DNA from: Chrysomallon squamiferum
Lineage: Eukaryota; Animalia; Mollusca
DNA: 64,000 nt
Direction of reading: 5' to 3'
Assembly (NCBI GenBank): GCA_012295275.1
Contig: CM022673.1
Location: forward strand, 25,358,001 to 25,422,000
Below are positions 31,201 to 64,000 of this stretch, in pieces. Under the pieces are notes generated by a model. It was given only the letters and a program-made list of their open reading frames with translations. It made no database searches and was not told the DNA's origin. Position 1 is the first letter of the stretch. Each line of letters starts with the position of its first letter. The position numbers and the translations under genes are program-made.

Positions 31201-33270
31201 AAAATCTATATAAAAAGAAACATTCACTGGAAACAAAAGGACTGAGGAATTTGTATTTCTTCAAACCAGTTTTCAGTTACTGAACAACTGACTTTGAAAT
31301 GCATCAAGATCTTGAAATATATTGTAATCATATCTATTGAATTGTTATAAATAATAATTTTATTTGTGTATACATATATATTTCATGGCTAGCAGAACTG
31401 TTGATTTGTATTCCAAACAATTCACTTCTGAATCAGTTTTGTCATTATAAATTAATATTAGATTTGTATACAGATCAACATAATTAATATTCCTATCCAA
31501 TACACCTGCCATAATATGATAAATAGTCATTGATAAATAATTTAATTTTTTTTTAATTTTTTACAGTCAAATATTATTTAAAATATCCAGAAGCCATTAG
31601 AACTGATTTTACAGTATCTTTATTTCAAAATGTTCAAGGAAAACATGCTTTTGGGTGCCCCATGGCAGCTTCAGAATCTTTAGTTAACAGCCCCAATTGT
31701 TCCAGTGGCCCTGTATTTTATTTTAAAATTCAAAATATTTGTAGTTAGGGAGATGTATTAAATGAATAAATAAATAAAAAAATCATTCAATTCAGATCCA
31801 TTTACAATGCATATTTTTCTGATATGTGTGGGAACTCCATTTTGAAAGTAATTTCTGACCTTCTTTTGGAATGTATGGAATAAATGATGGTGCTTGAAAC
31901 TGATGATTTTGACTGGGATGATTGGCATATGACAGAACAGCCAAGTCAAACTGCTCTCCTAAAGGACTCCTCCACAAAACATCACATTCAGACAAAGGAG
32001 CCTTTCTTTTTCTCTTCAGATACACTGTAGAAAAAAACAATATAATTTACTGGCATTTTCATAATTAATCTGCAGTATGCTTAAAATACTTGCATAAATT
32101 TTTAGAATTAAAAACAAATTTATAAGAATATGTTTAAACCTTAGGTGGTATGAGCAAACTCTAAATATACTGGGTATACTTCCAACTGATTGTCTTATTA
32201 GTTATTCCATCATCCTGTGAAGGTTTTTGGTTTTTTTTTGAAAATTATGTCAGATAAAATAGAAAATTTAGCTTGGTAAGATTTTTTTATTAAATTTTAT
32301 TACAGAACTTTATCATTGGAAAAAAATTAAATAAAAATAAATTATAACTATAGATACTTGTGTTAGCAAAAAAAAAAAAAAAAAAAAAAAATCATTCTCA
32401 GATGTTAACTTTGTCTCATTATCATAAAAATTATAAATTCACTGAACTTGTGGGATTTTTTCATTTAAATGAACGTGTAACATTAGAATGATGAAAACTG
32501 ACAGGCGACAAAGTGCTTGGAAACTGATGTCAGGGCTAAACAATTGTTTTTTTTTCCACATAATTACAAACATCTGTCCTGAACAGCACAATAACAGTTT
32601 TTAGAAAGTAAATTAAAAAAAAGACAGAAATTTTGAAAACCAATATATTAATTACTGCTTTAAATACACTATTTAATGAAGAATCTGTAGAGTGTTGATT
32701 TTTCAAAAATGATTTACCTAAATATATTTGATTATTTAATTTTTTGGTAAGGGCATATGAATTGAATTGTAATATGTTACCTAATTATTCTATTTTTAAT
32801 TTATAGCTGTTACTACTGCGTTTTTTTTGTTTTTTTTCAAGAACACAAGTCTCTTTTTGTTGGATTACATTTATTAAAAACAGGGTAACTGATGTTACAG
32901 TAGATGTAACAATAGGTGTTTTAACATATACATTACCTTTGTTGTTTCTTTTAACAACATGGCTGCAGGTGAGAACCAGACGTCTGGCTGGATCAACAAT
33001 GATCCCAGAACCCCAAAAGTTATCCAGTTTTATCAATGCAATATTCTCAAACATGGCTAATATGTGGTCCACTGAATCTGTTTTATAAATAAAAATAACC
33101 AGTTTATCCATCTCTGCATATTTGGTTAGTGTTCACTTTGGTCAATTGTATTTCAAAAAAAAACTTTTGCTGCTGTATAGATTTATAAATTCAGCAAGGT
33201 AAAACTCTTATGATGCTGTGAATTTTTTTTTTTTAAATATTATTTATTTATTTATTATTATTATTTTTTA

Positions 33271-33302
<32 letters not shown>

Positions 33303-35991
33303 TTTTTTTTTTTACATTTACAGAGCAGCTTCTCAACCATATTCTCAGTAAAATTTCTCTAAAGGTAAATATTTTAAAATCACTGACATGTAAATGTTTA
33401 CATTATATTTATATATGCTGATGGAGATTTACATATTTCACATAAATAAAAATTAAATAATTTATTTCACTTCATTAACTAATGTCATTTGATTTTAATA
33501 TATGATAATAATGACAAAAATCTTATAAATATTACATACATAACTGAAAATCATTAATCAAAATTACTGTTATGTACTAAATTTAACTGAGCTGTTGTTT
33601 TTATTTCTAAGCTGAAGTCACTGTATCAAGCAGGCTGATTATAGGAACTTCAACAATTTAAAACTGAAATTTCAACTACATTAGTCCAAAACACAACCCA
33701 AATATAACAGTAATCTATCCTTCCATGATAGGCCTGGGTGTGGTACAGGTGGGAGCAACTCATTCTCAGATTTCCAGAACATTCAGTTGACTTTGGCTTG
33801 CTGTAACAAACTTAATGCAGACAACCAGAGCAACTCAGTAAGGCCCAGACTTACCAAGTTGCATTATGACAGATATTTGCATACCTTGTAACTCCAGAAA
33901 CACATCTTTACAGTGATGTTATCAGTGACAGACACCTTACATGAATAAGAACTTTCAAACTGCTCAGAAAACAGTTACTGACAGTGCAACATCATCATTT
34001 GAGACTGCACTCAGCCCAGATTGTGTAACTTCTGCAGTAACATGACTAGCACAGAGCATGGATACTAAAACTCAGCATTACAATGATGGCATTCTTCATC
34101 CAGCTGTCTTACCATTGGTAATTATACAGAATTTCCTTGGTGCTCACCAAATTTGTTCCCTTTAGAACACTTTTAAGATGTCATTGATCACTGTAGACAA
34201 TAAAGAGAACACTCTCCAACCAATTAATCCAGTGTATCCCGTGTGACTTCATCACACTTTTTCTGAGTGTTGGAGAGTTTTTCTGCATATTGCATCACGA
34301 GGTGATCATGCATGATTTTAATGTGACTTCTTATTGAACCTTGACCTTTGCATATTGTCAAATATGTTGAAAGCTTTATTTTTATGATTCCTTGTGATTT
34401 TCATTTCCAATGCCGATTATGTTCACATGTTGATCTTTTCAAAATATTTTAATTCATACATATGTCTACTCGTACTTTTAAACTAAAAATCTGTGGAAAA
34501 GTTTCTTTTTTATCAGATTTACCTCATCATAAATCATTTATATCAGTTTATAAAAAGAGACATTTTACAAAGTTTGCTAAATAAAGTTACAAAATACATA
34601 CCTGTACCTTTCCTGATGTTTGGAAATGTTTGGTTTATTGAATTTACTAATACACCATTTCTGTTCAAAGAATCCAAAATCAGATCTATAGAACAGGCAA
34701 GAGACAGTCCAATCCATTCAGAGTTCTTCCAGCACAGTGTTGCGACAATTATACCAATTAGATACCTAATACAAAATCACAGTATCAATGTTAATACAAT
34801 TATATAATACTTATCTTCTTTTTTTTTTTAAATCTCAGTGTGATTAAGTAACTTTTTTAAAGTGCAAAAGTAAAAATAAATAAAAAGTATTTACATTGTT
34901 ATGTAACAATGCTTTATAATGACAGATTTAAAAATATAAACAAACTTTTTAGTTATCATTAGAAACATTAATGAATTGTTAGGATTATCAGAAGAAATAC
35001 AAAGATAAAAATATATCAATCAATAAATAAATAAAATTTTCAAATTTGTTAATTACTGCTTTCTAACAAATGTCCATTACAATAACATGTTAGATTATTA
35101 CATAACAGAATAGCATGAAATTATACAACTCATCCACTGCTGTTCAATCAATGTTTTTGTGGGGTTTTTTCTCTTATTTTTAAATATTTTAACTTAAGCT
35201 TACTTTTTCTCATCTACAACTGAATACAGTGGTCCACCTTCACATCCGGGAATACATCTGGCATCAGTGAAAATAAGACACTGATTCTTTCCTGCCAGGT
35301 TGCTAATGATACCCCGACTACATGAATTTATTAAAGCGCCAGGGAAAAGGTTTCCAAAAGGCGTGGCTTGAATTTCAACTGGTTCACCAGAACGACAAAG
35401 CCGAGACGATCGTATCAACAGATTCGACTTGCAGCTGGTCCAGTCATTCACTTTCAGTAAAATAAAATATGGTAAGAGAGTAAATGCTGTAGCTTCAAGA
35501 CTGTGCTGATCACTGGAAGATGAAGTTGAACTGTTTGATGGTTGATCATCAGAACCATCGGCAAATTTCCAGTTAGACAGAGGTGTGAAATATTTCACTG
35601 CATTCTCAAACACAGCACACTTGAATATGGAAACCACTGATCCTGTGTGAACAGAGTAATCTGGATATCTGTCTTCAGAGGAAGAATTCAGAAGAGATGT
35701 CAGATTGTTCGATTTTATCACGTTTTGCATGGTCTTGTTGTCCTTTACTCTCCTTTCGAGAGTGATCTCCACATTTTCTTTACTGTTGATATATTTAACA
35801 CAGCCATCTAGCTCTTGTGATGTGACTGCTTCCTTCAGATGTTTGTCTTTGAGGACAATGGCACCTAACAAACTGGCATGAGCGACAACAAATCCCTGTG
35901 ATGTATCAATAATGAGTCCACTGCCTGTACCTTCTCCATCATAGTTTTTAGCTTTTAGTGTCACTACGCAAGAATGGTTATAATGTGCCAT
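28230..35991 (-). CDS. TYSND1: Peroxisomal leader peptide-processing protease (trypsin-like, ~556 aa)
   Basis: Exons 35991-35204, 34765-34602, 33077-32937, 32024-31860, 30934-30813, 30359-30271, 29941-29847, 29105-29031 and 28261-28230 (1671 nt, in frame). Motifs: TDARCIPGCEGG, LCWKNSEWIG, the catalytic triad LTCSHVV / FDLAVL / HAGASGG, and a C-terminal PTS1 -SRL*. Confidence 0.93.
33720..34440 (-). mobile_element. Possible heavily decayed Tc1/mariner-like insertion in a TYSND1 intron
   Basis: A GC-elevated island with broken frames loosely resembling a Tc1 transposase N-terminal region. There is no intact motif. Confidence 0.3.
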
Positions 35992-41050: not shown

Positions 41051-44000
41051 ATGGATGATGGCCTTGAAGTAAGCTTGTAAGTTTTACTTACTTTTTTTTC
41101 TTCTGTTTTTTTCTCTCTCTCTGTGTGTGTGTGTGTGTGTGTGTGTGTCTGTCTGTCTGAATCCAGCTTTTGATATTTAGTAATTTGATGATTTTTTATG
41201 CTTTTCCTTTAAGTTTGAAATAGATCAGGAGAATAATCAGGTTTACCCATTTAATATTTACAGAGATGCTAACTTGCTGAACGACTTCTTTCAAGATGGA
41301 GGCAATGCAGTAAGTTTTAAAATATTCTGTTTTAATTTTGTCTGAGTTACTTAACCAATGAACTATATCTGTTAATAATAATTAAAATAATAAATGTCCT
41401 TGCTTTTTATTCAAATTCATAATTGTGAGAGCTATAGTAAATTAAGAATTTTTAATAAAATATGTAAATTAAAGGGGACAAAAATTCAGTTGCATTCAGT
41501 TAGACTGGTATATTTGACCTTAAATAAAAGTAATCACTTAACCGTGTGAAATGGTAATTCCTGAAAGTCTTTTAGCAAAGGAGTTTTATTTTTATTTTGG
41601 ATAAAATGTTAATCTGTATATTGCATAATTCAGGTTTCCTCAATTGCTGATGATGACGGCTGTTTCCAGGACACTGCCTTCAGTTGGGCTGATGATTTCA
41701 TTTCATCAGCTCAGGAAGCTGAAGAGGTTCATACCTCCGTCCAGTCTTCACTGCCAGCTGTCAGTATGGCACAGAACCAGACAGAATCCAGAACAGTGGA
41801 TATCAGCATGCAAGGCACAACAGCACTGGGACAGCAACACATTATTCAGCAGCCTTCCAGCACGATCACATCTCAGCAGATTTTGCAGAACTCTGGTGGC
41901 ATCATCCAGGGGTATTCTCATTTAAACGTTTTTCTTTGAACTATTACTTTTAAAACAAAGGTATTAGATTCAAGACAAACTGTAATGTTTGTTTATTTAT
42001 TAATTTTAAGGTAGAGTGAAAACTGTTTTAATATTAAATATTGTATATATATAGCCATTTTGAAAGAGTAAAAATAGTTAATTAATGCACTGTGTGCTGG
42101 TTATAACTAATTGATAATTAACCCAAATGACATTCATAAGATTTATAAAAATGAAATTCATAAAATTGTTACACAAAGTGGTGAATGTCTTTCAGCAAGT
42201 ACATTTATATATTTGTTTAGGATCGGAGGGCAGCAGTTTATCATTTCACCATCAGCTTCCATCCAGCTATCACAAAGCCAGTTAGGCCAACAGCCACTGA
42301 CTAGTCATGTTTCCAGTCAGCAGTTCAGTATCCCATCAACACTTGTAAGCAGGTCCTTGACCCCAAGTCAGAGTCCTGCACCTTCACAGTCACCTCATAG
42401 CAGATCTCTTACCCCAAATCAAACTTTGATCAATCACAATATTCTTCATAATCATGCTGCAACGTCATCACCAAGCATCCTTCAGTTTTCAAACACTGCT
42501 CAACAGTCCCAAGCACAGATGCATATGGCAGGTGCTGTTCCTGTTCAAAGCATTATCCAGAATCCTAATGCAGGAATTATGCAGGGCCAGGCTGTCGTTC
42601 ATACACAGAATGCTGTGATTCAGAACCCAAATGTTGTGAATGTTAATGTGGCTCATGTCTTGTGCAATAATTCTCAGCAGACACATCTGCAAAGTGGAAT
42701 TCAGGGACTACCTGTTGCAGTATCCAATACAAATATTCAAGGGAATCCAGTCAATATTCAAGGAACAATTATCCAGACGGCTCAAGGCAAAAGTATTTTA
42801 ATCCCTAACCAGCTGACTGGCCAACAGATTAACTTACAAAACTTTCAGCAGTTGCAGATGCAGCCACAACAAGTGCAGGTCCAGTCTCAGCCAGTTCAGA
42901 TCCAGCCACAGCAGATACAGATGAATCCTCAGCAAATGAATCTTGGTCAGCATATCATATCCAACAACGGTACGCTAGTTCAGAACCAGCAGGGTGGTGT
43001 GTCTCTAGGTAATATCATCAGGCTTGCTGCTCAGTCAAATCAAGACAAGACGGGTACACTCCCGCCAAACATCAGTCTTATCAACTTGCCTGGAGGTCAA
43101 GGGCAACAAATATTGATCCAGCGAGCTCCAAATCCAAATGCTGGTCAGCCACAAAACATAGTTCTGCGAACCATTTCTCCTAACATTGTGCAAATTCAAA
43201 ACCCAAATCAAAGTGGACAAGTATCTGGAACACCATTGCAGATAGCATCAAATATTTCTCATCAGATTGTGAACCAGAACAATCAAGGAATACAGCTCCA
43301 GCAGGTGTTTTCTGGAGGACAGGCACAACAAATAAAATTAAGTAATCAGCAAACCACTCAGCAGAGGTTACAAGCTGGCACTATGACTTTGAATCTGGCT
43401 GGACAGAATATTAATTTCCAGCAAATGGCAGGGACTATGCAGTTGGTACAACAGTCCCAGAACACTAATGTGCCATCTAGTATTGCTGTGACAACACCGA
43501 GGTCCTCCACTTTCTCAAATAGTAATAGCCAGATGTCTAATATAGTATCTAAAGCACTGATCTCTTCAGGTATTAGTCCAGCTATTACAGCACATAGCAC
43601 ACAAGGACATCTTGATATAAACAGTAAAACTTCAAATGTTCAGGCTTCAGTCGTAAAACACAATAGGTCCAAAAAGCAGGCAGATGTGCAGTCAGTACCG
43701 TCTCCACTGCAAAAAATGCAAATTCCAGTTTCACAGTTTATAGCAACAGCATGTAATACTGCTGGAATCAGTACAGTACAGTCTACACCAACTCCTTCAA
43801 CAACAACAGTGTCACAGGCATTTGTTCAGATTCCTTCTCAGTTGACTGTTGCCAATAGTTTGGCCTCATCTCAGACTGTGTCTTCCATAACTTCAAATTG
43901 TGCAAATCAGTTGACAGGATCAATGGTAAAATTGCAACAGGTTCCTTCTAACAGAATATTTCAGTCCCCTATTTCTGCTTCTGCTGTGCAAGGTAGTGGT

Positions 44001-47000
44001 TCAAATGCTAGACTTCAGAGTGAAATGATGAAATTGTCAATGCAAAAAAAATTAACTCCTGAACAAAAGCAGTGTTTGCAACAGATGAGTGTTTTGCAAA
44101 AAAGAGCAGCTCACCCTACACAGGTAAGAAATGTAAGTGTTGCTAACAGTTCAATGCAACCAAGCATTGCTACATCTGTACAGACACCTGTTGTTTCTGC
44201 AGCTTCCATAGCAAAGTCCCAGCTTCAAACCAAACCAACAGTGCTCAAAGACCAACAGAATCATGTTTCACCTTCACAGTCTGTACCTATAGTGACAACG
44301 ACAGCTACGTTAAATAAACAGATTATAAAAGAAGAGCCTGGTTCTCAGTTGTCACACTGTGATAAAGCCTCTGTAAAGACGGAGCCAATTGTTCAAATGG
44401 GTGTAAATTTGCCAGGCCAAAAAATTATGAAAATGGAACCTCTTGTGGTTAGTTCAACAGCTTTCGTGGCAAACTCTAACCCAGGGAGCACAGTGTTATG
44501 TACAAAACAGAATGTGATGATTCAGACTTCAACAGTTGGATCAAATCTTGTCAGAATGTCTGTACCTCAGATGGCAACTGCTACAGGAGCCTCTAATGTT
44601 AGCAGTAATCAGCATATAAAAATAATTCACCAGGCACCTGTGAAAAAAGTGATTCCTATAACTCAGACTCAAGTAATTAAAATACATCCAACACAACCCC
44701 ACATCAGAACTTCTGCTTCAGGAGGAGTAATGCAGAATATTCCACCAGGAAAAGTTCCTATTTCGGCTACTCCAACTGTGCCAACACAAATCAAGGTACA
44801 TTATATTATGTGTTTATATTGCTTTTTGTTTACCTGTATTATCTGATTGAAAGATATATTACAACCTTTACCTAGTTGGTAATCGTTTTATAACAAAACA
44901 AAAAATGTAATTAGATCAAATGTTGATGTAAGATAATTTTACAATAGATTTATAATTATATCTATGCATTTATGCACACTCACATCTGAATGTGTAGTTA
45001 AAAGTTTTGTTTTATTTTAACAGATAGCTAACCAGACGTTGACTTTAAACCTGACAGCACAACAAAAAGAAAAACTTCTAAACCATTTAGCAAAGATGAC
45101 TCAGGAGCAGCAGGAGATGTTTCTAGAACAACAACAAAGTGTTCTGCTGAAACTACACCAGCAGCATCAAGCCCAAGCACAGGCACAAGCTCACACACAG
45201 TCTCAAGCACACATACAAATACAACAGGCCACAGTTCAGTCAAAACCCCAGTTGTTGGTTGCTAGTCCAGCAGGGAAAATACCCATTACTGTTCAGGTTT
45301 GGCCATTAATCTGATATTTATCCTGTTTCTGAGAACACATCAGCCTGGATAATAATGCTAAGTGTCATAAAAAGTCCTTGAAATAAACCCATTAAAACTA
45401 TAACAAGTATAAAATGTGAATTCACATTTAAAATTTTGTCACTCAAGGCAGATGGAATCATTGTTTGTACTAATTATTTTGTTGTACCCATTACCTTGGT
45501 TTCTTTAACAGAACATCTATGGCAGGGATGATGTATATTTTTGGCCAGCCATATTATTTCAGTGTTAATAAAAGATTATTTTTTCTTCTGTTTAATATAT
45601 TTATTCATTTGTTTGTATATTTTTATTTATTTATTTATATATTTTTTTTTTTTGTGTGCATCTGAAAGCATGTTATTATATATTATATAAAATACACAAG
45701 TCTGTAAGTAAAGCAGAAGTTTATACATCTTGAACATGCAGTCATCTTACAATAAACAGGAAATATTTTTCTTGCAGCAGTTGGATAAAGGTGTAAATCA
45801 GATCAAAGTTGTGACTCAGGTAGATTCTAATGGTCAGCAGAATTCTCCAGCAAAAGGACTGAAGCGCCCTGCAACAATTGATGGTCCCCCTGTCCCCTTG
45901 TAAGTAAATGTATCCGTGTCCTAATGATATATTTTCACTTCTTTTTTTACAGGAAAGTTGAGTAAAAAGAAATAATATTGCATTTGATGCAGCCATTAAG
46001 AAGTTAATGTTCTGATGGTGATGACAGTAAATAGTATTCATTAATTAAGAAAAATATGTTCTATAACAAGTCTATAAATATTAAATTACATAATAAATTA
46101 TAAACAAAGGTATATATTGTAAGCTTGTTGGTCATGACACTGGAAATGTAATTCACTCACAAAATAAAAGTGAAAAATTCAGACACCATTCACTAAATCC
46201 TTATTGTTTTTGAGATGGACATTCAAGAAGAAGAAGAAAAGTAACTGGTATGAAATTAATTTTTAAAATTTAACGAGGTAAATGACCAGTTTGATTCAAC
46301 AAAAAAAAACAAAAAAACAATCATAATGCATAAATTGTTAAAATTCACAACTATTTGTAATTCTCATGCCTAAGAAAAACATTTTATTACTGTTACAGAA
46401 TCCACCAGCAGCTAGGGAAAGATCAACTTCAAGCAACAAATCCAGACAAGAAATCTCCTTTTAAGAACAACCGTGAAGCTGTCAGGAGATTGCTTAGATA
46501 TCATGTGTTTCAGTCTCCTGGCCCGTCCACAAAAGTGTTTGAGAGTGGTGGGTTCCCTTTTCTTTATAAATCAAAAACTTCTTACGACAAATAGTGTTAG
46601 AACATTACTCATCTTTCAAAAATAACCTTCAGTGTCAACTGTTGTTTCTGTTTTGTCTAATTATCTACATATCAGAATGTGAATCATGTTTGTTTTGTTT
46701 TAGAGTGATTTAATATTTTTCCTAAGAAGTATTTCACTTGAGAAAATTTTGCTTTCAGCTGATAAATTATTTGAACAAGTTTCTGTTGACCTGCTGAAAA
46801 AAAGTGAGGCCATGAAAGCTAAATTTCAGCTTCTGCTGTTTGAGGAAAGTATGGTAAGTGTTCAGCTCAAAAGCATATTTTGTTTTTGTCCAGCAGACAT
46901 AATAATCATTAAGTTAGTCGTTTTGACATAAAAAGCTACTTTTTTCTTTTTTTTCCTTTTTATAGGTTTGCATTACTTCATGTTAGAAAATTGAATTATT

Positions 47001-49004
47001 AAGCAGGAACTCTAAATAAATGTAAATTTTTTTTGGATAACAAATATTGGAAATGATTCCTCCTTACAAGAATTATTTTTGTGTGTTCAGAATGAAGACC
47101 AATCAAATAAATGTAGTCAAAAAATTCAATTTGCATTTAATTTTGGCTCTTCTTTTATCTAATGTAATATTTCTTTCATACTTTTATCATAGCGACAGAG
47201 TCCATCAGCAGAAATGGTAATGATACAGAGAATGCTAAATCAGGATTTATCCGTTCTTGTTGAAAAAGAAAAGATGATTGTGAAGAACAACCCAGGTATA
47301 AGCTTATAGTTTACAAACAAAGCTGGTTTTGCAAAATGATTAAAAGAAGTATAAAGATTAATGAAAGACATTTTTTTAAAATCCTTATAATAAAATATTC
47401 ATAAAAGAAGTACATGAAAATATAATTGCTGTTTGATGTTTTCATAGTGGAGATGATGCAAGAATGCATATTTAGAAAAATATGTTTAAATTGTTTTTTT
47501 TTTTTTTAAATTTACAGATGACTTTAAACCCATGCCTTTGAAATATCTGAAATTGGATAAGACTGAACCATCAGAAAAAGGCCAAGATAGTGTTAGTGAA
47601 GGAACTACAAAATGCAAAAAAGAGTCTGTTTCTGAAGGTGGTGATTGTGAGAATAAAAAACTTAATGCTTTACCACCTGAGACATTGAAAGTGTGTGTTA
47701 AGTCTTCACCAGCTCATTCTCCTGGAAGCATGAAGCTAGTTATCAGGAAAAATGAAGGCCAGGGATTTACTAGCATTCTTCAGAATGTAGATGAAAATTC
47801 GGAAACTGGATCCCATCCTGTTAAAAAAGAACCTGTCATTGGTAATGCTAATGGATTTGACAGTGTTGAAAGCAAAAAAAGTGAAAAAAATAAACACATT
47901 TTAAGAGAACATATTCAGTCTACAGAAAAAACATTTCCTTCTGAACCTTTATCAAAACTAATAACAGAAACTTCTGAAAATGTTATGAACGGACAGCATG
48001 AAGAGGCTTCCCATTGTGTTAATGACCTACCACCATTCCATAATCTTGGTGAATCCCTTGATGAAGACCATATATCAGATACAGGTGATTCTCAAAGAGT
48101 TTCAGAAAGTAGTCAGCCACACTACAGTGATATCAGTGTAACTGATTTGTCTGGTGAATACAGCAACATGTTGTCACCAGTTAGCAACCAGTCATCGCCA
48201 CATTCAGTAACAACAGCATCCCAGGTATCACAGAATTACCCTTCTGTGTTCACTTACAATTCAGACTTGTGTTCAAATCAGCAGTCTGGTGTAGATAACA
48301 AGAGTGGCAATAAAGTGAACTCATCTGAATCAGTTTCACAGATGGACATTGAAAGTAATTCTGTGGTGTCATCTGATTTAAATTTTCTGAATAGTTGTGA
48401 TGATGTGCCATTTTCTGCTGCAAAAAGTGGTGGTGGTGGTGGTAATGAAATTCAGAGTGCTGTTTACAGCATTATGGAACTAGAAGATGTAAGTAGTGAC
48501 AGCAGTGGTCTGACAGAAGAATCTGTACAGACTGTGCACAAAGTAAATGTTGGAAAAACTATGGGTAAACAAATAGTACAGCCTGATTTTTCACCAGACA
48601 GGCTGTCAGATAGCAAAGCACCTGGCTCAAATACACAAGTCAGTAATGATGATTCAGAACCTGTTAATTTAGATGCTTCTTTTGAATTAGATACAAATGA
48701 TCCACAGAATGGTATGATGAATGCTCAAATGCAGAATGCCATAGAAAGCATTCTTAGTCTCAGTCAGGAAGCAGAAGCAGAAGCAGCAGAGGAAAACTAC
48801 TACACTGATCATTCGAATTTTGTTCCCAATCTGAATGGCAGTCATGTGTCTGAGTCTATGGACACAAGTCAGGACAGTGATTGTATAGGTGACACTGACT
48901 TAGATTTTAGAGACGAATCACAGACTGAAAATAATTCAGAGACTGTAGGGAATGATTCGGTAGAGGATGACCTTGATGCTGCAGTTCAAAGTATTCTTAT
49001 GTGA
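41051..49004 (+). CDS. BICRA: BICRA/BICRAL (GLTSCR1) homologue, ncBAF/GBAF subunit (~1717 aa)
   Basis: Exons 41051-41076, 41264-41309, 41634-41911, 42221-44795, 45024-45296, 45778-45899, 46399-46547, 46759-46853, 47193-47295 and 47518-49004 (5154 nt, in frame). N-terminus MDD...LLNDFF, then a Q/S/N-rich region, then the GLTSCR1 domain PDKKSPFKNNREAVRRLLRYHVFQ...FEQVSVDLLKKSEAMKAKFQLLLFEES...SPSAEMVMIQRM. The C-terminal AAVQSIL resembles BICRAL. Probable 5' UTR exons end at 37594 and span 39214-39292. Confidence 0.92.
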
Positions 49005-52000: not shown

Positions 52001-55000
52001 GTAATAATTAGAATATTATTTGTCATATTCATTAAGTTTCTTGTCCAAACATTTTGGTTGTCTTTTCTTCTGTATTGCTTAGAAGACAAGTTTCATTTTT
52101 ATTATTTTCTTTGTTATTTAATGGTTTTTGGTTGGAATATCATGTAAAAATTATTTCATTATTATTTATTTTTTTATTGACTTCGCAGAAGAGTAAATGG
52201 CTGTTTTCATTCCTGTATAATACTTTATCAACAATTGCATGTTCAGTTTTGATAAACAGTTATTTACTATTTTTACAACAGGCATGGCCCTGATTATTTA
52301 AATATTTATTTTTAAAATTAGAACTGAATTGTTACCCCAAAATGGTTACAATTTCTGCAGAGGTTTTGTTAAGAAGTTGTGTAAATGTCATTAATTACAA
52401 AAGGAACACACACACAAATACAATTTTTTTTGACTAAAACTAAAATTGAGGTCTATAATATAGCTATTGGAATTGTTAGCAGTGTGTCATTTCAGAATTC
52501 TTTATCCTTATTGTGCTGAATCTCATTTCAATGGTATGCTGCATCAATTTAATATAAGTATTTGTTTCAAAATAAATAATTTGTACCTTTGGACAAACTG
52601 TTGCATTTATATAAAATTTTAACTGGCATCAGAATAGATATATGTCTACGATATTTGTTAAGAATTATCTCAAGTATAGTGTATCTCTAAAACAAGTTTT
52701 TTTTTTTTAAATTCAAAAATTATAAATAATTCTAGTGTTCATCTAATGTGTAGTAGTACATATCATGTCACTTCTTCAGTGCTCATTTAAATCAGGTTAG
52801 AATGAATTGTTAAACTGATCATGTCGTCCATATGCAAAAAGATTTATGAATCATGACTTAATTTTTCATCATTGCTTTATGATGTATCTGTGTTAGACTG
52901 TATTTGTATAGTAGTCTTGAGACTGTATTTATATTTTGTGTAAGCCTTATTTGTACATGTACATATAAACTGATATAAACACATACAGAAAAAAAAAAAT
53001 GTTTTGTGTATTTGTTTGAAATGTTTAAAAGCTGGTATTGTATACATATTCAAAGACAGATTCTTGAAATAACAAATTTGATAGAAGAGGTCATATTGGA
53101 AATTATTTTCTAAAAAGATAAAAATGCAGTTATTTTGAATGGAACTTGAAGTGCTTGAACAGCAAGATCAGTTCAGAATACCATTAACCTTTTCAGGGAA
53201 AATTGAATTTTCAAAAATAATTATTGCTTCTGGTCAGAATAGTAACAAGAATTACATAGCATTAATATTTTGAGAGACATAAAAAATGCAATTCATGTAT
53301 TCAAAAATCAGATTAGTCGAGTTTGTAAATGATCTTGTATGTGCACCCACAAACATAACCTAAACTGGCATATTTGCAAGTTATTGTTTTATTTCTCAGC
53401 AGTGTCTGAACACAAAGTAATGTAATAAAATTAACATGCCTGTAAGTATGCACAAATACAGTATATTTTTTCACACTAAAATGAAATGAAAAAAGATGAC
53501 ACAGGATTCATCAGCTTGGCAGTGAATTAGTTCAAATAACAGATTTTGTTTCTCTCATTATTCATAACATTTCAAAATGCATTCTCATCAGTTTGTTAAT
53601 TTACTGTTGTGAAGAGAAAATACTTGTCCTGCTATAAACAACATTTTTTTGAAGTATTTTGGGCAAAGAAGATACTTTACTTGAGTAAAAGGTTCAATAT
53701 CTTTACATTGTAACTGGAGATGAATTATGTATCAACTTAACAAAATCTTAAAAATATTATGTGGCAATTTTAATTATTCCATTATCTATTTAAGTGACTG
53801 TTAAAATAATGAGCACACAAAATATGCAACAGCATAAAATACCCTTCAACATTTAATTTCAAATATATAATCAACAAACATCACATCAAATATAGTGAAA
53901 CTACAGAAAAAAGTTTTAACATCAAATGACAAGCACCTGCTTGAGATAAAATTTAATATAAGTCATTAAAGCTAAACCATCAGAATAAAACTATTTTAAT
54001 ATTGCAAATATTTAAGTGTGGATAACTTTAGTTTGGTTTCTTCAAACAATAGTACTAAAATACAAATTCAACAGTTAAAAACTTGTATATTCATTAACAA
54101 TGTTAAAACTGACCGAATTCATCTGAACTATGTTATCTGATATGTATCTCACAACAGAACACTGCAATTTGTTTCTTTATGTTTTCTGTTAAAAAAAAAT
54201 GCAGAAAATTTTGCAGAACATTTTCATGCTCTTGGAAAGAGAGACAAATTTTATTTGAATTAGATTTTTTAAATTCAATTCATAGATCACCACTGCTTTT
54301 AAGACTGTATGTCTGCTGTGCAGGAATTAAAGTTTGTTATAACCTTTCATTATAATTAATGTCTCTTTGAATATCAGTTGTGCATAATAGTCAAAATATC
54401 TGACATGTATACACTGTTTTCATTTATATAAATTAAAGTAAATAAATTCCTTACTTTTTCTCTTTATACATAGCTTGTGCTGGAAGAACCTTAATCAAAT
54501 GATCAATTTTTTTTTTTAGGGTACAATTCAGAAATAGTCCAGTGAGATATTATTTAAAAATTTGCAATGACGCACAAATTGTTTAACAATAAGTATAAAC
54601 AATTTTTTAAATAATAAAACAATATGACCTATATATATGGTCAACATTAAGAACAGAGATCTACAACATGCAACAAATATATCAATTTTGTAACTGTATC
54701 AAAAGATTTTCTTTTATGGAACATTTACTTTAGATTGTATCATTATAGTATTTAATTCAAACAAAACTAAAATAAAAAAGCAAACAAAGTAAGAAGAAGT
54801 ATGAATTAGTTATGTTACCATTATAAGCTGAAAAACATAGGCAAAATGTTTCCATTTATCAATTCTGCATGTAAAAATAAATAATTTTAAAAAATGTCTT
54901 TGTTACTAACATCAAAATATATCAAAATATTAGTTATATTACATTACACAAATACTTCTGGTATAAAATTAAAAAGGTTAAATATGAGTTAGCTGCTTTG

Positions 55001-55751
55001 TTTAGAATGTTTGCCCAAATCAAACATTATTTCAAATTGAACTGATAAAAAAAGCTGTTATATATAAATACTGGAATGTCTGGAATAACAGAGGCCTATG
55101 TATTTATGAATCAAAGATCTGAAATCAGAATTTCCTTGCATGCTATGTTTGCATTATAGCTTGAAGGATAAATAATCATTTCACAGAGTAAACAGTCCAG
55201 AACATCCCAGAATTAAAATTATCTGATAATATGATGAACATTTTTTCTTCTTCATTATTTATTCACTCTTCAACAAAACATAACTGAGTCTTGAATAAAC
55301 CACAAATTGTTTTCTTAATCTATGCTCTGTATTTCTATCAGAAAGCATCATCTGTTATAAAATTTCCCCTTGAATCAAACAAATCAGTACACTTATATCA
55401 AATCAATTCTTTCTCCAATAAACTATAAAAAAAACAGAATGTTAAAATGATTAATATGCTATTACAGCACACAGGGATTAATACTAACTATATTTCAGAC
55501 GATGAAAATATAAATTTTCAATGTCTAAATAGATTCTTAAGAAAACGAAAGGATTTTTTAGTGGGGGGTGTTAATGATTAAGTAATATGTATTAAACTTC
55601 ATAAGAATTAGACAACAATCAAATCATAAATTCATTTTATGTTTTTTTTAAGGATCTAATTGGATATTCTTCGAAGTCTAAAATGCCTTGACACTGTTGC
55701 TTAAAGTCTCTTTAAAACTGCTCGCTTAAAAAGGAAAATGTGATGCTTTTG

Positions 55752-58700
55752 TTATATTTTGGCTCCTCCCATTGCCCCAGTTAAATCTTCTTCATAATCA
55801 CTTTCCAGCAGGGAGTCATCATCGAGTGTGTTCTGGCGTTCCTGAGATGAAAAAGTAACTGGCCGTCTCCTTGGTGAAACATCACTGTTGGATGTGAATG
55901 ATGGACTGCTGTACAGACTTGTGTCACTAGTGATGTAGTCACTAGGGGAATATGGAGGAGGCGCTTCTGAAAAAAAAAAAAAAAAATTCAAAGATTAATT
56001 AGTTACTCTATTATGAATAAATAGATCATTTGAATGAGTTTTTGTTAATATACTTACTGTGAAAGAGCAAAACTTCAAATTAAGCTACGATTAAAGAATT
56101 GTGATTTCGTCCTATTAGGCTGATTTTTTTTGTTGGTATTTTATAAAATTATTTTTTAGCTGGTTTATTTATTTATCATTTTTGATTTTTTTCCTATTTT
56201 CATTTTATATACCAAGTAGGTAAGGAAATTATATTAGCTAATTCAGCATTGCACATTTGGTAATTTCAGTGTGCAATGTTCTTGGGAAATGTTTTTTTTT
56301 TTCAATATGTTCTCAAGACTTGTAATTAGTGTAAAAATTAAATTTGTTCAAAACTCTAATAATTTTTATGTTGTTGTATATACGATAAGGATCTAAATTT
56401 GAGTATTCTACTATTTATTTGCTATTAAAGTTCAATATGGATAAAACATGAACAATCCATTTAATTAAAAAGTCAATGTATTTATAGGTGCAATGAGAGA
56501 ATTGTTTTTACCAAAAGTAGATTGTTGGTGTGAGTGATTGTCTGATTTTCGTCTGTACTGCTTTACTTTCTCTTTAGCTTCCTGAACAACAAATTTGGTG
56601 GTTCCTGAACCTGCAGCAACAAAAAGAAAACAGACAAATATATATGTTTCTTTTTACTACCAGTATGTAAATATTCCTACATCTCAGTTGTTCAATTTTT
56701 AAATATGCTTTGTACATTATTATCATACTTTTCTTTTCAATAACACTGATTAAATAAAAAAAATTAAACAAAAGTGTATTCACATTATGAAAGAAAACTT
56801 CTGTTTTACTATTAGTTACCTGTGTACTTGATGTTACGCAGATCTTGATCATGGACATCAGGCATTTGTAGAGCAATATCCTACAATTGGAAAAAATAAA
56901 CAATAGCTACAGTATTTTTTTCATTTTTTATAAATTATGTACAAATATGCGCAATATCAAACAGATACTCTTAGTGTTTGTACCACATTATAACCATTTT
57001 GTGAATGCTGATGAACATTTCAAATATTGTCAAAACATTATCAGTCTAGGATTTTGGCCTTTATGTTAATGCTTTGCTTTGAGGAAAATTAGATACATAT
57101 CTTTCAAGAGTGATTTAATAAACAATAGGGTTTATAATAAAATTTAACAACTCTGAAATAATTTCATAGTTTAAGAATACAAAATATGGTTTTACCCTCT
57201 GTGCTTCGAAAATGACAGCACATTTTTTGGCATAATCAATGTATGATTCAGACATTTTTAGCAAGCCATCTTTAATTCTGATTAACTTGACCGCTTCGTT
57301 TTCCTGGTGACGGTCACTCACTGAAAAACAAATGGACAGGAGACATTAAATACACACTGGGTCTCAACTTATTACTGATTTATTATTCTTGAGTTGTTGT
57401 CATTTTTTGTTTGTGTGTGTGTGTGTGTGGATGTCAGCTGTGAAATATTCACAAAAATTATTTTATAAAAAGCAGTGAACAATGCTTTAAAATGAACATT
57501 CAAGATTCAATTAAAGATAAACTGGATTAAAACCAAAAGTTAAATATTTAAGCTAAGTAATGCAAGATAACAAACAGTAATTTGTTACTAAAAGTAATAT
57601 AATTAGTAATATAAGAGTATTATTCACCAGTTAATGGTGTAACAAATTGTAACCCCTGCACCAACTGGGCAGAGAACATTACATAAATGTTACTGGAGAA
57701 CAGCTGCAGAAATGTTATGTTTCACATACCTTCCATTTGAGCAAGATCCTTGGCTCGTTCTGCTTGAAGAAGTCGATTCTCCAAAACCTGCAGTTCAGCT
57801 GAAGATGCTTTCTGTAATCATTAAAAACAGAAGTTTACATTTGTTTAACAGAATTGGATTAAGTCCATTAATTAAACAACTATAATTAAATTATCAATTT
57901 TCATGCAATTCTTGTTAGATGAGAAAATAAAAAATGGATAAAAATTAATTTGTTTTAATTGGATGACATTAATGTCACAGATTTGTTATATTAAAAAAAT
58001 ATATATTTTAAGTTTCCAACAGATGACAAACCTTAAATGCCTTTTTAATTTCTTTCCTAATCTTGTACTCTCTCTGCTCACAGGAAACCTGCCAGTACAA
58101 AAAGAAAGAATAATGTACTTTTTATTCATTATAATATGATGTATGTTGCGCAATTTCAAAACATTTGCATCTTAAAGGATCATATGCTTAAATTATCTTC
58201 AATAAAATTTTAAAAGCCTTGGTCAGTATGATTAAAATTTTCCTGAGCAACATTTAAATATAGTAATATGAATAAACTTACATAGTTGTTTTTTGCCTGG
58301 GAAACATGTTTTTCTCCTTCCAAAACCATCTCAAACATCCTCTTATGTTCTTTAATATGTTCTGAAAATACACTTTTATGTATGTATTCAACATAAAATA
58401 AAAATAATGTGACATAAACCCACTGCATTACAGTGATTTATAAATGACAATACATATTACTTATAATAGTAAAATTAGCAGAATTAAAATCAATGACATG
58501 TTTTCTTTTTAAAATATTATAATTTACATTTATTTATATAATTGTTAAATTATGTATTAAATCAGCATATTTTATTTATTATGATAAACATACCAATAAA
58601 TTCTCTCTGTATTTCTGACCAAGCTAAATTCAGTTCTGCTAGCTGATTTGCAACATCCTAGAATGAAGAAACATTACAACTGAATTATAATTTTTATTTA

Positions 58701-60154
58701 TTACCAGAGCTGACCACAGAACTGGAAGTTATTTGTTTATCATTCAAAAGCTTCTTTTTTTCTGGAGGTTTAGCTGGATTTTTTCCATGATTTTCAAGTT
58801 AACCACATTAAATTAAATAATGCTTATGTGGGTTTTTTTTCCATATCAGATTATTATGTTTGTTTACAGTATAAAAGCATTACCACTGATGAATGTCTCC
58901 ACAGTCCACTTACATATATGTTTTTACTGATATTACACAGACTGGACAACAGACATGACTGGCCAGTACCTAAGAGATTATCTCTCCTTAAATTGGGAGC
59001 CACTTACCAATTATTGCATCAGAATGACAATTCAGTGATATTAATAAAATTACAGGACAGGCAACATTTTATCAGGACTAATATGTTTTTAAGGCAATTT
59101 TTCAACACTGCTACTAAATATAATTAATCGGAACATGAAACAAAAACTATTCAACACTGCTACTAAATATAATTAATCGGAACATGAAATAAAAACTATT
59201 CAGTTTACCTGTATAGCCCGATTTTCTTCATTAGATGCCCACTTCAAAAAATCCTGGGAAGCTTCATTAAAAACAACATAACATATGCTTTATAATGGTA
59301 CAGAAATTAATGACAGTTTAAAATTATATATATATTTATTTTTCTTTTAATTAAATATTTTAACATATGCAAGGTATAAAGCGTTTTATCATTTACAGTA
59401 GTAAAATTTTTATATATCTGCCAACCAATACATCTAAAAGCTTTAAAATATGGCTTACAAATAAAATGGCCAATGAGTTTATCTTTAAGATATAAATTAC
59501 CTGCATTCTGGGCATTCAGAAATGCTTTGGCTGTGTTTCGCATGTCTTTAACTTCTGAGATCAGTACACCGAGATCAGCATGACCACCACTAAGAAGCTT
59601 AACACTGCTTCTGGAACATCAACACAAACAAAATATATTAAATAAGATCAGTATCAGTGATTATAAATATAGCAAACGTATTAAAAATTTAAGAAACACA
59701 CATTGTATATTCAAATACTAACTAGTGAAAACCTGTATGCATAAACACAATGTGTATCTCTTAAATATAAAGCCACATGTACACTTTTCCCTAATTTCTG
59801 AATGAAAAACTATTTGGCATAACTCAGGGACACAAGTTTATCATGAAAAAAGATTAATGTGACAATATTAATGCAGATATATTATGAAAAATTAGGAATA
59901 GGTTTCTGACATACACAGAGCATTTAAATTTTGATGTATATTGATTTAATTGATTAGGTAGAATTTTTTATTTATAAAGTTCAAATTAAACCTTAAGACG
60001 TCACTTTTTTATGCTTTATCAATAACTTGAATAAGTACTTAATTATTACAACATTTAATCATCTATATTATAATTAATATTAACAGTAAAAAGGTAGATT
60101 TAAAAATATAGTTTACCTCCTAACTGCGCGTGCTGCTCTGTCCATTTTCTGCAT
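55752..60154 (-). CDS. Pil1/Lsp1-like (eisosome-type) BAR-domain protein, 327 aa, 11 exons
   Basis: Exons 60154-60117, 59610-59501, 59261-59209, 58657-58594, 58361-58282, 58088-58032, 57811-57730, 57320-57196, 56880-56820, 56610-56512 and 55966-55752 are all GT-AG and total 984 nt without internal stops. The product has a helical core of about 240 aa and an S/D/E-rich tail. The gene model is strong; the family call rests on by-eye alignment to remembered yeast Pil1. Confidence 0.8.
59101..59201. repeat. Near-perfect 48-bp tandem duplication
   Basis: TTCAACACTGCTACTAAATATAATTAATCGGAACATGAAA(C/T)AAAAACTA occurs twice, adjacent to the exon-3 donor of the Pil1-like gene. Confidence 0.9.
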
Positions 60155-60523
60155 AAGTTAGATCAGTAAAATTTGTCACTACTCGCTTCTAATCACAAGT
60201 TTAGTGATTGGCGTTCCTTGACAAATTGTCAACACATAAAATTAACATTGACAAATTCAGTACTTCTTAGCCCTTTAAATTTTACGATAACCTTCCGCTT
60301 AACACAGCACATGAGGTCTAGAAATCATTAAACCATGGCTGAGAATGAACGCGTATAAATTAATTTTAATAAAGCTTCAAAAAATATATATTTCATTACA
60401 AAACTACAGCTGACACCAGGAAGCGTCTTTTACCAGAGCGCTCTCTGTCGGAAGCTAGGGGAAAGAGCACCTGCTGGAACGACAACTCTAAGAAAGAACA
60501 GTGAAATCGTGACGAAATACGAA

Positions 60524-60745: not shown

Positions 60746-63700
60746 ATTGATTGATTTATTTATTATTATTTTTATTATTATTATTATTTTTTTTTAGGTT
60801 GGTTTTTATTTAGTAATTTTGACTGGGTTCACAACATCAAAGCAGGTTTAGTATAATCGTTTAGGCTAACTTTATATCCTATTCTACTGTACTGTATTGT
60901 ATTGTATTGTTTTGTATTTAAATAATAAATTTAATTTTCAATTACAGAAGTATGCACACTAATATAATAGATAAGATACCAGAATGCTGGCAAGGACTGT
61001 TTGAAGCTCTGAAGTCTTCACAGAACAATTTCCAGTCAGCAGAACTGTGGTTGCAGCAGAAATGTTATTCTCAGTATGAAGATCCTCCGCAATGGGAAGA
61101 GCTGATATCTTTTTTGGCCCAAACAAAACCAGAGTCTGCCATTTTTCAGTTTGTATGCTTCTTAACATTGACAGACATTAAGCTGATAATTATTTTCTTT
61201 TATTCTGAAAATTTTTTTTTTTTTATAAATGAAATGAATAATTCTTTATAGTATCAGATTAATACAGTAACCATAATTAACATATCTACTTTTAATATTA
61301 TTAACATTTATGTAATAATTATTAATTTTTGGAATGAAAATCTATTTAATTATATATATTTAATAAGTTTATTTCTTTAAAGATAAAAAGAATAAAAAAT
61401 GAAATAATAATTATAACGTCCCTAGATGGTGCCACAAACATTGTTATTCATACATACAGTTTTTTTTTTCCTTTCTTTTCAGAAAACCCATGTTTTATTT
61501 CCTGCCTCCAGACATACAGAGAAAACTCTTAGCTGTGATATTTCAACACCGACACCAAATATGTCTGACATCACTGCAGCTATTTCTTAAAGACATTTCT
61601 GAATGCACAGAGGAGTGCAGCTGGCAAAAAACATTTTGTGAATTGTTAGAAGGATTTGTAGAAAACTCACGTAAACAAGATTCCAGCTCAGAGTTAACAA
61701 CACATTACAAGTTTACTGAGGCAAACCGAGCTCTGAGTGAAACCATTTGTCACAAATTATTAACAAATGACTCCGTATGGCAGACACACAATGTCACAGG
61801 TTTATTTTAATTTTATTTTATTCCAACAGAAATTTTTGTCAGTGAAGTCATTCTTCACAAGTTATCATTGAATAAATAAATGTAGTAAAAATTTATTATT
61901 TTTACATATAGTTAAAATATTCAGTTTTTGTCTGATCACTCATTTGAAAATAGATGTATAACATAGGAAAGATATATGATGTAATTATTTAGTAAAATAT
62001 ACGTATCAATTTTTTTCTGCTAAGAATGTTGTTTGTTTGAAAAGAGTTCATTTATACATGTTGATTTACACTGATTTATTTAATTCTTTTTTTTTTTTTG
62101 ATTTTATACAGCATTTGGTATAAATATATTACAAAAATTCCAGTTGATACAAATACAGTAAATTTACAATTATATTTTTAGCTTTAAAATCGTCTGTGAT
62201 TTTTTTAAATGTTATTATTTTGTGTGTGAGTGTGTTACAGTAATCAGTAATACACATTTTTAAGAATTTTTATAAATGTACTTTTAAAAAATCTTGTAAT
62301 ATTTTAAAATAAATTTATATTTCAGAAATCATTTTATGTAATATGTATTTTAACTGTAATTAAAATTAGGTCAAGAAGTGAGCACAGATATAAAGAACTA
62401 TACATCACCAGTTGAAGACAAAGAACTGAACATTTCAGGTGTTGAAAATTCACTGTCACAGAATGATAATCCGAAAACTGAAGAGATGCAGAATGAAAAA
62501 TATGTAATAATTATGGATGATGAAGACACCTCAGATGAACCACCTCCAGTTAAAAAAGCTAAAGAAGACTTAAAAACATCAAGTATGTCAACTGAATAGC
62601 TATGTATATCACATTTTACTGACTAACTATAATACATTTCTTTAGTCATTATTACATTTTCACAATATGCTCAGATTTCTTTTAATCTGTTTTGGAATTT
62701 GAGGAATGAATAATTATAACAATACAAATGGTAGTCAGAAATGTGATGTGAAATATGATGCCTGTTGATAACTCTGTATTGATTGTTAGTAACAGCTTGT
62801 GCAAAGTGCTAAACTAGTTAATGTGGTAACTTAAAAAATATACAATACTAATAATGTCAACACTGAAAACATTCCTATTTGTTTGTGGTAGGTTCTAGCA
62901 TAAACAAGGGAGATAACTTCTCTGGTGTACAGACTATAGCTGGTTACATTTAGAATGTATGATAAAAATCACACATCCTTGACCTGTGAATTATGTAATT
63001 TTACTGAAAAAAATGTTCAAAACTTTTTTTTTAATCTTTGTATATACATAAATAATTAGAACTTTTAAAATTTAGTTTTCACTTTTAATTTTTAGGTGAA
63101 ACTGAGGATGAAAATTCCCTTGAAAGTACATTAGTGGTACAGTTTTTAGTTTGATTTGTTATTGTTTATTTGTTTATTTATTTTATTCTGTTGTTAGTAT
63201 GGTTATGTCATTAAATCCCCATGATATTTTAATACAGAAAGCAAAAAAAAATTTCAAATTTTGTAAAACATAAATAGTCACTCTGGACTTGCATAAACTT
63301 ACAAAATGTTCAGTGAGAAGTATTTTGGACTTTGGGAGGAATAAATAAAAATGGTTTAAAACATTTTTAATACAAAGGATTTTGTTTTGCAATTAAGGTA
63401 AATGATAGTTAATATTGAGAATGAAAAATTTTAACAGAGAAGACGTTGCTGGAACCAATAAAAAATAATTCCGTGAAGTATATATGTTATATTTAGGATA
63501 TTTATATATATTATAAAAATAACATAAAAAAAATTTCATTTCTTTTTAACAAAATGTAGCTGAAAGCAGAATGGCTTCGAGAACAGTTACAAAGTTCAGG
63601 TGGTTTGGATATGGAATCAACAAATCTGGGTTTTCTTTCTTCTCTCTCACCATCCCAGGTAAAATAATCTTCTTAAGTGTTGTCTTAAAGAACTGGTGTT

Positions 63701-64000
63701 TTAGTTTCTGTTAAAATAAGTTTAAAGTGTTTTTAAATTTGTTGTGACAAAATAGATGTCTAAAACTCACTATTCTAATTATTAATATATTGTCGAACTG
63801 CTGCAGAAGTATTTAAAAGTAATGCATTGTTTATTAATTTGAAATGAATTGACATTTCCTACATCATGTGTTTACTTCTCATTAGGACTGATTGCTTCTT
63901 TCTTTTTATAACTGTAAAATAATAATTTTTTTTTTTTTTTTTTTTATACTCTTTTACATGTTTTTTTTTAAATTTCAGATGAAACAACTTTGCACTGCTG
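60524..64000 (+). CDS. FANCE: Fanconi anemia group E protein homologue (5' part; continues past window)
   Basis: Exons 60524-60570 (uncertain; ATG 60952 is an alternative start), 60948-~61148, 61483-61799, 62370-62582, 63096-63136, 63560-63658 and 63979 onward. WEELISFL...KPMFYFLPPDIQRKLL...SWQKTFCELL and LSSLSPSQ|MKQLCTA parallel remembered human FANCE (WGRLLEAL...KPLLLRLPRICQRNLM...AWLRALGELL; ECSPSQMDLLCAQ). Confidence 0.75.

Follow-up and report, generated by a model that had tools for sequence, protein, structure and literature searches.

Introduction

Do animals carry a relative of Pil1 and Lsp1, the BAR proteins of the fungal eisosome? The question is raised by a gene on the minus strand (60154 to 55752) of a 64,000-nucleotide stretch of the mollusc Chrysomallon squamiferum (assembly GCA_012295275.1, contig CM022673.1, positions 25,358,001 to 25,422,000), which we call the window, and which a sequence-only reading had proposed to encode a Pil1/Lsp1-like protein. 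The published view is that animals have no direct orthologues of Pil1 or Lsp1 (PMC10010689, from 2023) and that eisosome furrows are tied to walled cells (PMC5753163), and eisosomes are treated under yeast (PMC13312728). Our literature search, which left subscription papers mostly outside and is subject to supplementary domain tables that may list PF13805 in animals, found no description of an animal or holozoan Pil1 relative.

We find a conserved, expressed holozoan branch of proteins, by its sequences a real and apparently undescribed sister subfamily of Pil1/Lsp1. Our preferred reading, to which we assign a probability of about 0.7, is that the gene was inherited, that its product would form a BAR dimer able to coat or bend acidic membranes, and that a PPxY motif in its tail would recruit NEDD4-type ligases, making the protein both scaffold and adaptor. 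The branch overturns the sequence part of the view that animals lack an orthologue and dates the Pil1 fold to the origin of Holozoa at least. It also raises the direct question of whether animal cells build Pil1-type domains, and the series from fungus through Capsaspora and choanoflagellate to animal marks the residue changes of interest.

Homology to Pil1 and Lsp1

None of eight single exons matched Pfam. Exon 8 led to an uncharacterised Gigantopelta aegis protein, P0001, which is identical to the window product at 294 of 327 residues. The Pfam, PDB, structure and dimer tests described here used P0001 or family alignments, and the window's own spliced product entered only the alignment, the tree and our own fungal hidden Markov model (HMM).

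Four kinds of test support the proposal that the gene product is homologous to Pil1/Lsp1 and not to another BAR family. Using a wider holozoan profile and the Capsaspora protein, the match to the full Pil1/Lsp1 domain is significant and beats all other families, so profile homology holds at the level of the family and is carried by these two. In the PDB profile search, Lsp1 is ahead of the next row by eleven orders of magnitude, and FAM92A (E 1.8) is not significant. The predicted model of P0001 is a BAR fold that includes the loop and fourth helix typical of Pil1, and it is closest to Lsp1, which alone aligns through helix 4. An antiparallel homodimer is also predicted (ipSAE 0.82 vs 0.00 for the best control), a score that may reflect likeness to solved BAR dimers.

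The obvious alternative is another BAR type (FAM92/CIBAR, SNX-BAR or arfaptin) or a generic coiled coil that resembles Pil1 by chance. FAM92/CIBAR, SNX-BAR, arfaptin and F-BAR proteins are all listed in the profile and structure comparisons, well below Lsp1 and never as best match, and the Capsaspora protein bridges the holozoan family to Pil1. Together with the PDB gap and the helix 4 alignment, this largely refutes the alternative, which we consider very improbable.

Several results weigh against too simple a statement of homology. P0001 scores 20.4 bits against PF13805, below the curated cut-off of 27, which is reached by just four of 46 distant relatives (84.9, 33.4, 30.0 and 27.0 bits); we therefore file the family as a sister subfamily and not as strict PF13805. 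The window product scores 6.6 bits on the fungal HMM (best of 200 shuffles, 5.3), and Lingula and Sycon proteins score below zero. A protostome-only profile (hhalign probability 6.7, PDB E 4e-4) is too narrow for a convincing fungal link. Weak PF13805 matches are already precomputed in databases for part of the family.

The sequence-only reading had listed five collinear Pil1 blocks, and HMMER and hhalign comparisons with real Pil1/Lsp1 reproduce four of them. The fifth, RRS, is left unaligned by MAFFT; its distance to the K66 equivalent that follows is 22 residues in the window, 24 in 55 of 56 relatives and 23 in Pil1. The matches in acidic tail and in overall length that this reading proposed are weaker than it stated: the window tail is Ser/Pro-rich with 17% Asp/Glu (41% in Pil1), and Pil1 has ~33 extra residues before the BAR domain.

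Gene structure and transcripts

The gene has 11 exons and ten introns, as first described; the introns are 193-551 nt long, every one being GT...AG, and the spliced exons give a 984-nt frame (327 codons plus stop) that agrees with the 243 residues given in the sequence-only reading. In three runs of a single study, RNA contigs reproduce nine of the ten splice joints exactly, and a fourth run contains three of those joints. Across intron 10, these contigs connect 56512 with 55960 and leave 6 letters in between, a pattern that fits an acceptor at 55966 beside a poly-T stretch skipped by the mapping tool; an RNA contig from a second study reads through this intron unspliced. The contigs give no strand, start, end or expression level. 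The first ATG is at 60154, and a second at 60145 has better context and agrees with the start in relatives.

Coding exon 1 (60117..60154, all exons being on the minus strand) contains both ATGs and the start of a basic amphipathic helix. In exon 2 (59501..59610), the N-terminal segment ends and BAR helix 1 begins, with K34 equivalent to Pil1 K66; helix 1 ends in exon 3 (59209..59261), which carries the conserved Trp W57 (Pil1 W89). Helix 2 occupies exon 4 (58594..58657) and exon 5 (58282..58361), the latter with a remodelled lipid pocket in which K92, K95, E99 and L102 correspond to Pil1 D123, R126, K130 and R133, and it ends in exon 6 (58032..58088) with the basic arm tip. Exon 7 (57730..57811) covers the tip loop and the beginning of helix 3, and exon 8 (57196..57320) covers helix 3, including its 7-residue insert and the greater part of the predicted dimer interface. 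The Pil1/Lsp1-type extension follows, with the Pro-Asp loop after helix 3 in exon 9 (56820..56880) and helix 4 in exon 10 (56512..56610), where the tail begins. The coding part of exon 11 (55752..55966) holds the rest of the low-confidence, Ser/Pro-rich tail and the stop. RNA contigs also cover the presumed 5' untranslated part of exon 1 (60155..60440, with 6 upstream ATGs), and one RNA contig covers the presumed 3' untranslated part of exon 11 (54898..55751).

The linker before helix 1, in exon 2, is two codons shorter than in 55 of 56 relatives, and the RNA contigs bear out the shorter exon. Intron 3 contains a tandem duplication of ~49 nt (59101-59198), to which short contigs from the RNA runs map.

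Range of the family

Of 1210 candidates in a search with residues 1-250 of P0001, 102 proteins matched; they come from gastropods, bivalves, a chiton, Lingula, a nemertean, chelicerates, crustaceans and insects, with near-full-length rows at 42-80% identity to P0001. A profile built from 63 relatives matched 627 representatives at E<=0.001, of which 150 were listed and 30 checked by name. Among the matches listed are protists (Capsaspora and two Salpingoeca), sponges (Sycon, Oscarella and Amphimedon), the hemichordate Ptychodera, eight nematode genera, hemipterans, Artemia and Lepeophtheirus. In the ESM Atlas, a further cluster made up mostly of cnidarians carries Pil1 on 31% of its members.

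The family is therefore found in invertebrates, as had been suggested, and more widely, in Capsaspora, choanoflagellates and sponges. The sequence-only reading knew of no recognised orthologue in vertebrates, flies or nematodes; the range now includes eight nematode genera. Among the named rows (150 of 627 listed, 30 looked up) there is no name of a vertebrate, a fly, a Caenorhabditis or a holometabolous insect, which does not imply absence.

The nematode proteins (P0165, P0167, P0179, P0183, P0206, P0215, P0219 and P0231) form one fast-evolving clade in which most rows have lost the K66 and R126 equivalents and 7/8 keep PPxY. Automatic names on family members are unrelated to Pil1 (rickA, zinc-binding alcohol dehydrogenase, myosin-I heavy chain-like, tropomyosin-like, staphylocoagulase and F-BAR), and P0006 and P0080 carry fused HIT and mS25 domains that probably stem from gene-model joins.

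Descent or transfer

Fungal sequences for the tree came from a motif scan (116 loci); of 114 frames with the motif, 22 distinct long ones were kept, and 12 entered the tree. One frame (L049:514-1530) is as long as yeast Pil1 (339) and agrees with it over the stretch compared. No fungal protein came out of a word-based search started from the Capsaspora protein (2 matches among 2145 candidates), which is a limit of this type of search.

With fungi as root, the 64-row tree branches in the order Filasterea, a long hemichordate branch, choanoflagellate-like rows, sponges, nematodes and other protostomes. Support is 98/90 for choanoflagellate-like rows plus animals without Ptychodera, 99/95 for lophotrochozoans and 100/95 for molluscs. 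A tree of 34 of the 64 rows, with long or redundant rows dropped, agrees. In addition, an insert of 7 residues in helix 2 is common to 51/52 holozoan rows, and a second insert, in helix 3, to 52/52.

The sequence-only reading had left two origins open: inheritance from the opisthokont ancestor or an old horizontal transfer. Inheritance is favoured because the gene is present in Capsaspora, choanoflagellates and sponges, whose branching follows the species order, and a fungal transfer into invertebrates alone is excluded because protist copies exist. Descent from the opisthokont ancestor is likely, and it is the simplest reading of the sequences given an assumed root and fungi that are ascomycete-like only.

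Some points count against descent. Just 12 ascomycete-like Pil1/PilA rows, found with one motif, represent the fungi, whose position as root is assumed and which sit on a long branch. PMC10079182 reports Pil1 throughout Mucoromycota and as missing from Zoopagomycota, and the BLAST survey in PMC3128537 reports it absent from chytrids and microsporidia, though that survey also missed Mucoromycotina. With such a patchy fungal range, inheritance would require several losses, or divergent copies that have been overlooked.

The same range would suit one ancient horizontal transfer, with real homology, that linked an early holozoan in either direction with the common ancestor of Mucoromycota and Dikarya, as would the fact that Capsaspora is far closer to Pil1 than other holozoans are. 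That closeness is equally expected from slow evolution, however, and the species order of the holozoan rows and their two common inserts mean that any transfer predates Filasterea. We consider such a transfer distinctly unlikely and keep to descent.

The hemichordate sequence (Ptychodera flava P0214) has Capsaspora-like states (R126, K130, K165 and no PPxY), branches deeply and has FAM92 as its best Pfam match (E 2.6e-4), and forcing it into the animal clade gives an approximately unbiased test p-value of 0.054 (34 of the 64 rows). It is possibly a second, ancestral-type animal paralogue, perhaps together with the long-tailed cnidarian Atlas cluster.

Residue changes and the eisosome question

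PMC11324527 assigns Pil1 residues R126/K130/R133 to phosphatidylinositol 4,5-bisphosphate (PI(4,5)P2), K66/R70 to phosphatidylserine and F33/Y40/F42/F50 to sterol, and it places lattice contacts at residues 1-8, between 145 and 171-186, and at Y155/Y158. The PI(4,5)P2 pocket is not kept in the window, where it reads K95/E99/L102. The K130 position is acidic in 29/32 non-nematode protostome, 4/4 sponge-like and 5/5 choanoflagellate-like rows, and the triad is intact in both filasterean rows (R/K/R in Capsaspora). In the phosphatidylserine site, K66 is kept (K34) and R70 is replaced by N38, with R37 and K41 basic in 29/32 and 31/32 rows. R145, K148 and K159 are kept and the K165 position is acidic.

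In choanoflagellate-like, sponge-like and non-nematode protostome rows, new basic sites (R37, K41 and K92) lie one turn away. Helical spacing, as opposed to coordinates, suggests that they face the membrane. The N-terminal segment is also basic and amphipathic (moment 0.91; net +3 to +6 in 56/56), but has no aromatic residues such as the Pil1 sterol residues, has a predicted local distance difference test (pLDDT) score <50 in the P0001 model and is left unaligned by MAFFT. One consideration against membrane binding is that acidic K130 and K165 positions, found in most animals, could weaken it.

Two of the three Pil1 lattice contacts are not kept. With 33-34 residues before the K66 equivalent (66 in fungi), the contact at residues 1-8 has no counterpart; the Y155 column is basic in 31/32 rows, and Y158 is Phe in the window and variable across rows.

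These changes bear on whether animal cells build true eisosome-like furrows, static and tension-buffering, with the residue changes merely retuning the lattice. Such furrows would be in keeping with the whole-domain fold match including the Pil1-type fourth helix, the basic amphipathic N-terminus where the Pil1 helix sits, the conserved predicted dimer and the strong conservation among near-full-length rows. Opposed to them are the lost PI(4,5)P2 triad and R70, the two lost contacts, arms that are longer by 7+7 residues, and the existence of fungal family members, Meu14 and Ssp1, with non-eisosome jobs (PMC12470953). We find the idea unlikely, and the eisosome-like scaffold proposed from the sequence is partly contradicted.

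Tail and proposed mechanism

The tail contains a PPPY motif (residues 259-262, 55950..55961, minus strand). PPxY occurs in the tails of 59/63 relatives, against 6.1 expected, and in 0/22 fungi; by group, it is present in 5/5 choanoflagellate-like, 3/4 sponge-like, 7/8 nematode and 0/2 filasterean rows. From this distribution and that of K130, we conclude that the pocket change and PPxY would have arisen together at the choanoflagellate-animal stem. PPxY is a ligand of WW domains in NEDD4-type ubiquitin ligases. The C-terminal 14 residues (55755..55796, minus strand) are an acidic run followed by Phi-x3-Phi-x2-Phi-x-Phi, present in 45/63 relatives (protostomes) against 0.3 expected, for a pattern picked after the tails were inspected and counted in rows that are kin. 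We take this pattern to resemble a nuclear export signal; alternatively, it could be another docking helix.

We infer the following mechanism. A banana-shaped, antiparallel BAR homodimer, as predicted, would bind acidic membranes via the basic amphipathic helix at its N-terminus together with rearranged basic stripes. Once bound, the dimer would sense or make membrane curvature. The PPxY tail would recruit WW-domain (NEDD4-type) ubiquitin ligases. The protein would most likely be both curvature scaffold and adaptor where the plasma membrane invaginates, and its lattice and lipid preference would differ from those of the yeast eisosome.

A bolder version is that many invertebrates, choanoflagellates and Capsaspora keep a Pil1-derived, wall-free furrow lattice, that the stem exchange of part of the PI(4,5)P2 pocket for PPxY links tension to NEDD4-type ubiquitination, and that the nematode copy could be the scaffold so far missing for epidermal folds such as meisosomes. 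We offer this tentatively and think it rather improbable.

Genomic neighbourhood

The gene lies among ordinary animal genes. The adjoining gene (exons 42111-49004, plus strand) has a GLTSCR1 domain (E 4.6e-11), which supports its earlier description as BICRA. Domain matches also identify Mob1/phocein exons (12-4973, minus strand), Sir2 (15201-15530, plus strand) and trypsin-like peptidase exons (32785-35991, minus strand). Upstream, RNA contigs cover ~290 nt before the start, and a plus-strand gene (60922-64000) begins ~500 nt beyond, head to head; its label as FANCE gained no support from three fragments against Pfam or two against PDB.

Could the gene be fungal contamination or an assembly artefact? 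We found nothing in favour of this. Besides the spliced RNA contigs and the independent contig through intron 10, the orthologue with 90% identity sits on an 85-Mb mollusc contig, molluscs form a well-supported clade, a neighbouring gene has a GLTSCR1 domain, and GC is even across the window (23-41% in all 2-kb bins). Contamination, already argued against from the sequence, is thus excluded, and we put its probability as vanishingly small.

Comparison with known systems

The closest known system is S. cerevisiae Pil1/Lsp1 (PF13805; PDB 3plt, 8qb7 and 8qb8). It and the window family share a three-helix BAR domain, a Pro/Asp loop and a fourth helix, collinear over ~215 residues, with an antiparallel dimer predicted for the window family. 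The positions of W89, K66, R126, R145, K148, K159 and G243 are kept, and Pil1 too has a basic N-terminal segment with RRS at similar spacing. The two differ in that identity is 14-18%, with K130E, R133L, R70N, K165E and the new basic sites, and in that the window family has no counterpart of residues 1-32, has longer arms and does not keep the tip aromatics. Its tail, with PPxY and a conserved hydrophobic C-terminus, is also unlike the acidic tail of Pil1.

Capsaspora owczarzaki CAOG_01508, itself uncharacterised, belongs to the same holozoan clade and has the two inserts and a short N-terminus. It differs from the window product in keeping R126/K130/R133 and K165 and in having no PPxY tail, i.e., it represents an intermediate state. 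FAM92A/CIBAR1, arfaptin, SNX1/SNX5 and amphiphysin are also BAR proteins, but they give no significant profile match and their alignments stop before helix 4.

Finally, Ssp1 and Meu14 are, according to PMC12470953, divergent BAR proteins of the fungal Pil1 family that belong to the leading edge of the prospore. They set a precedent for a protein that has the Pil1 fold, shows little resemblance in sequence and carries a basic, lipid-binding patch at its N-terminus, although they are fungal and sporulation-specific.

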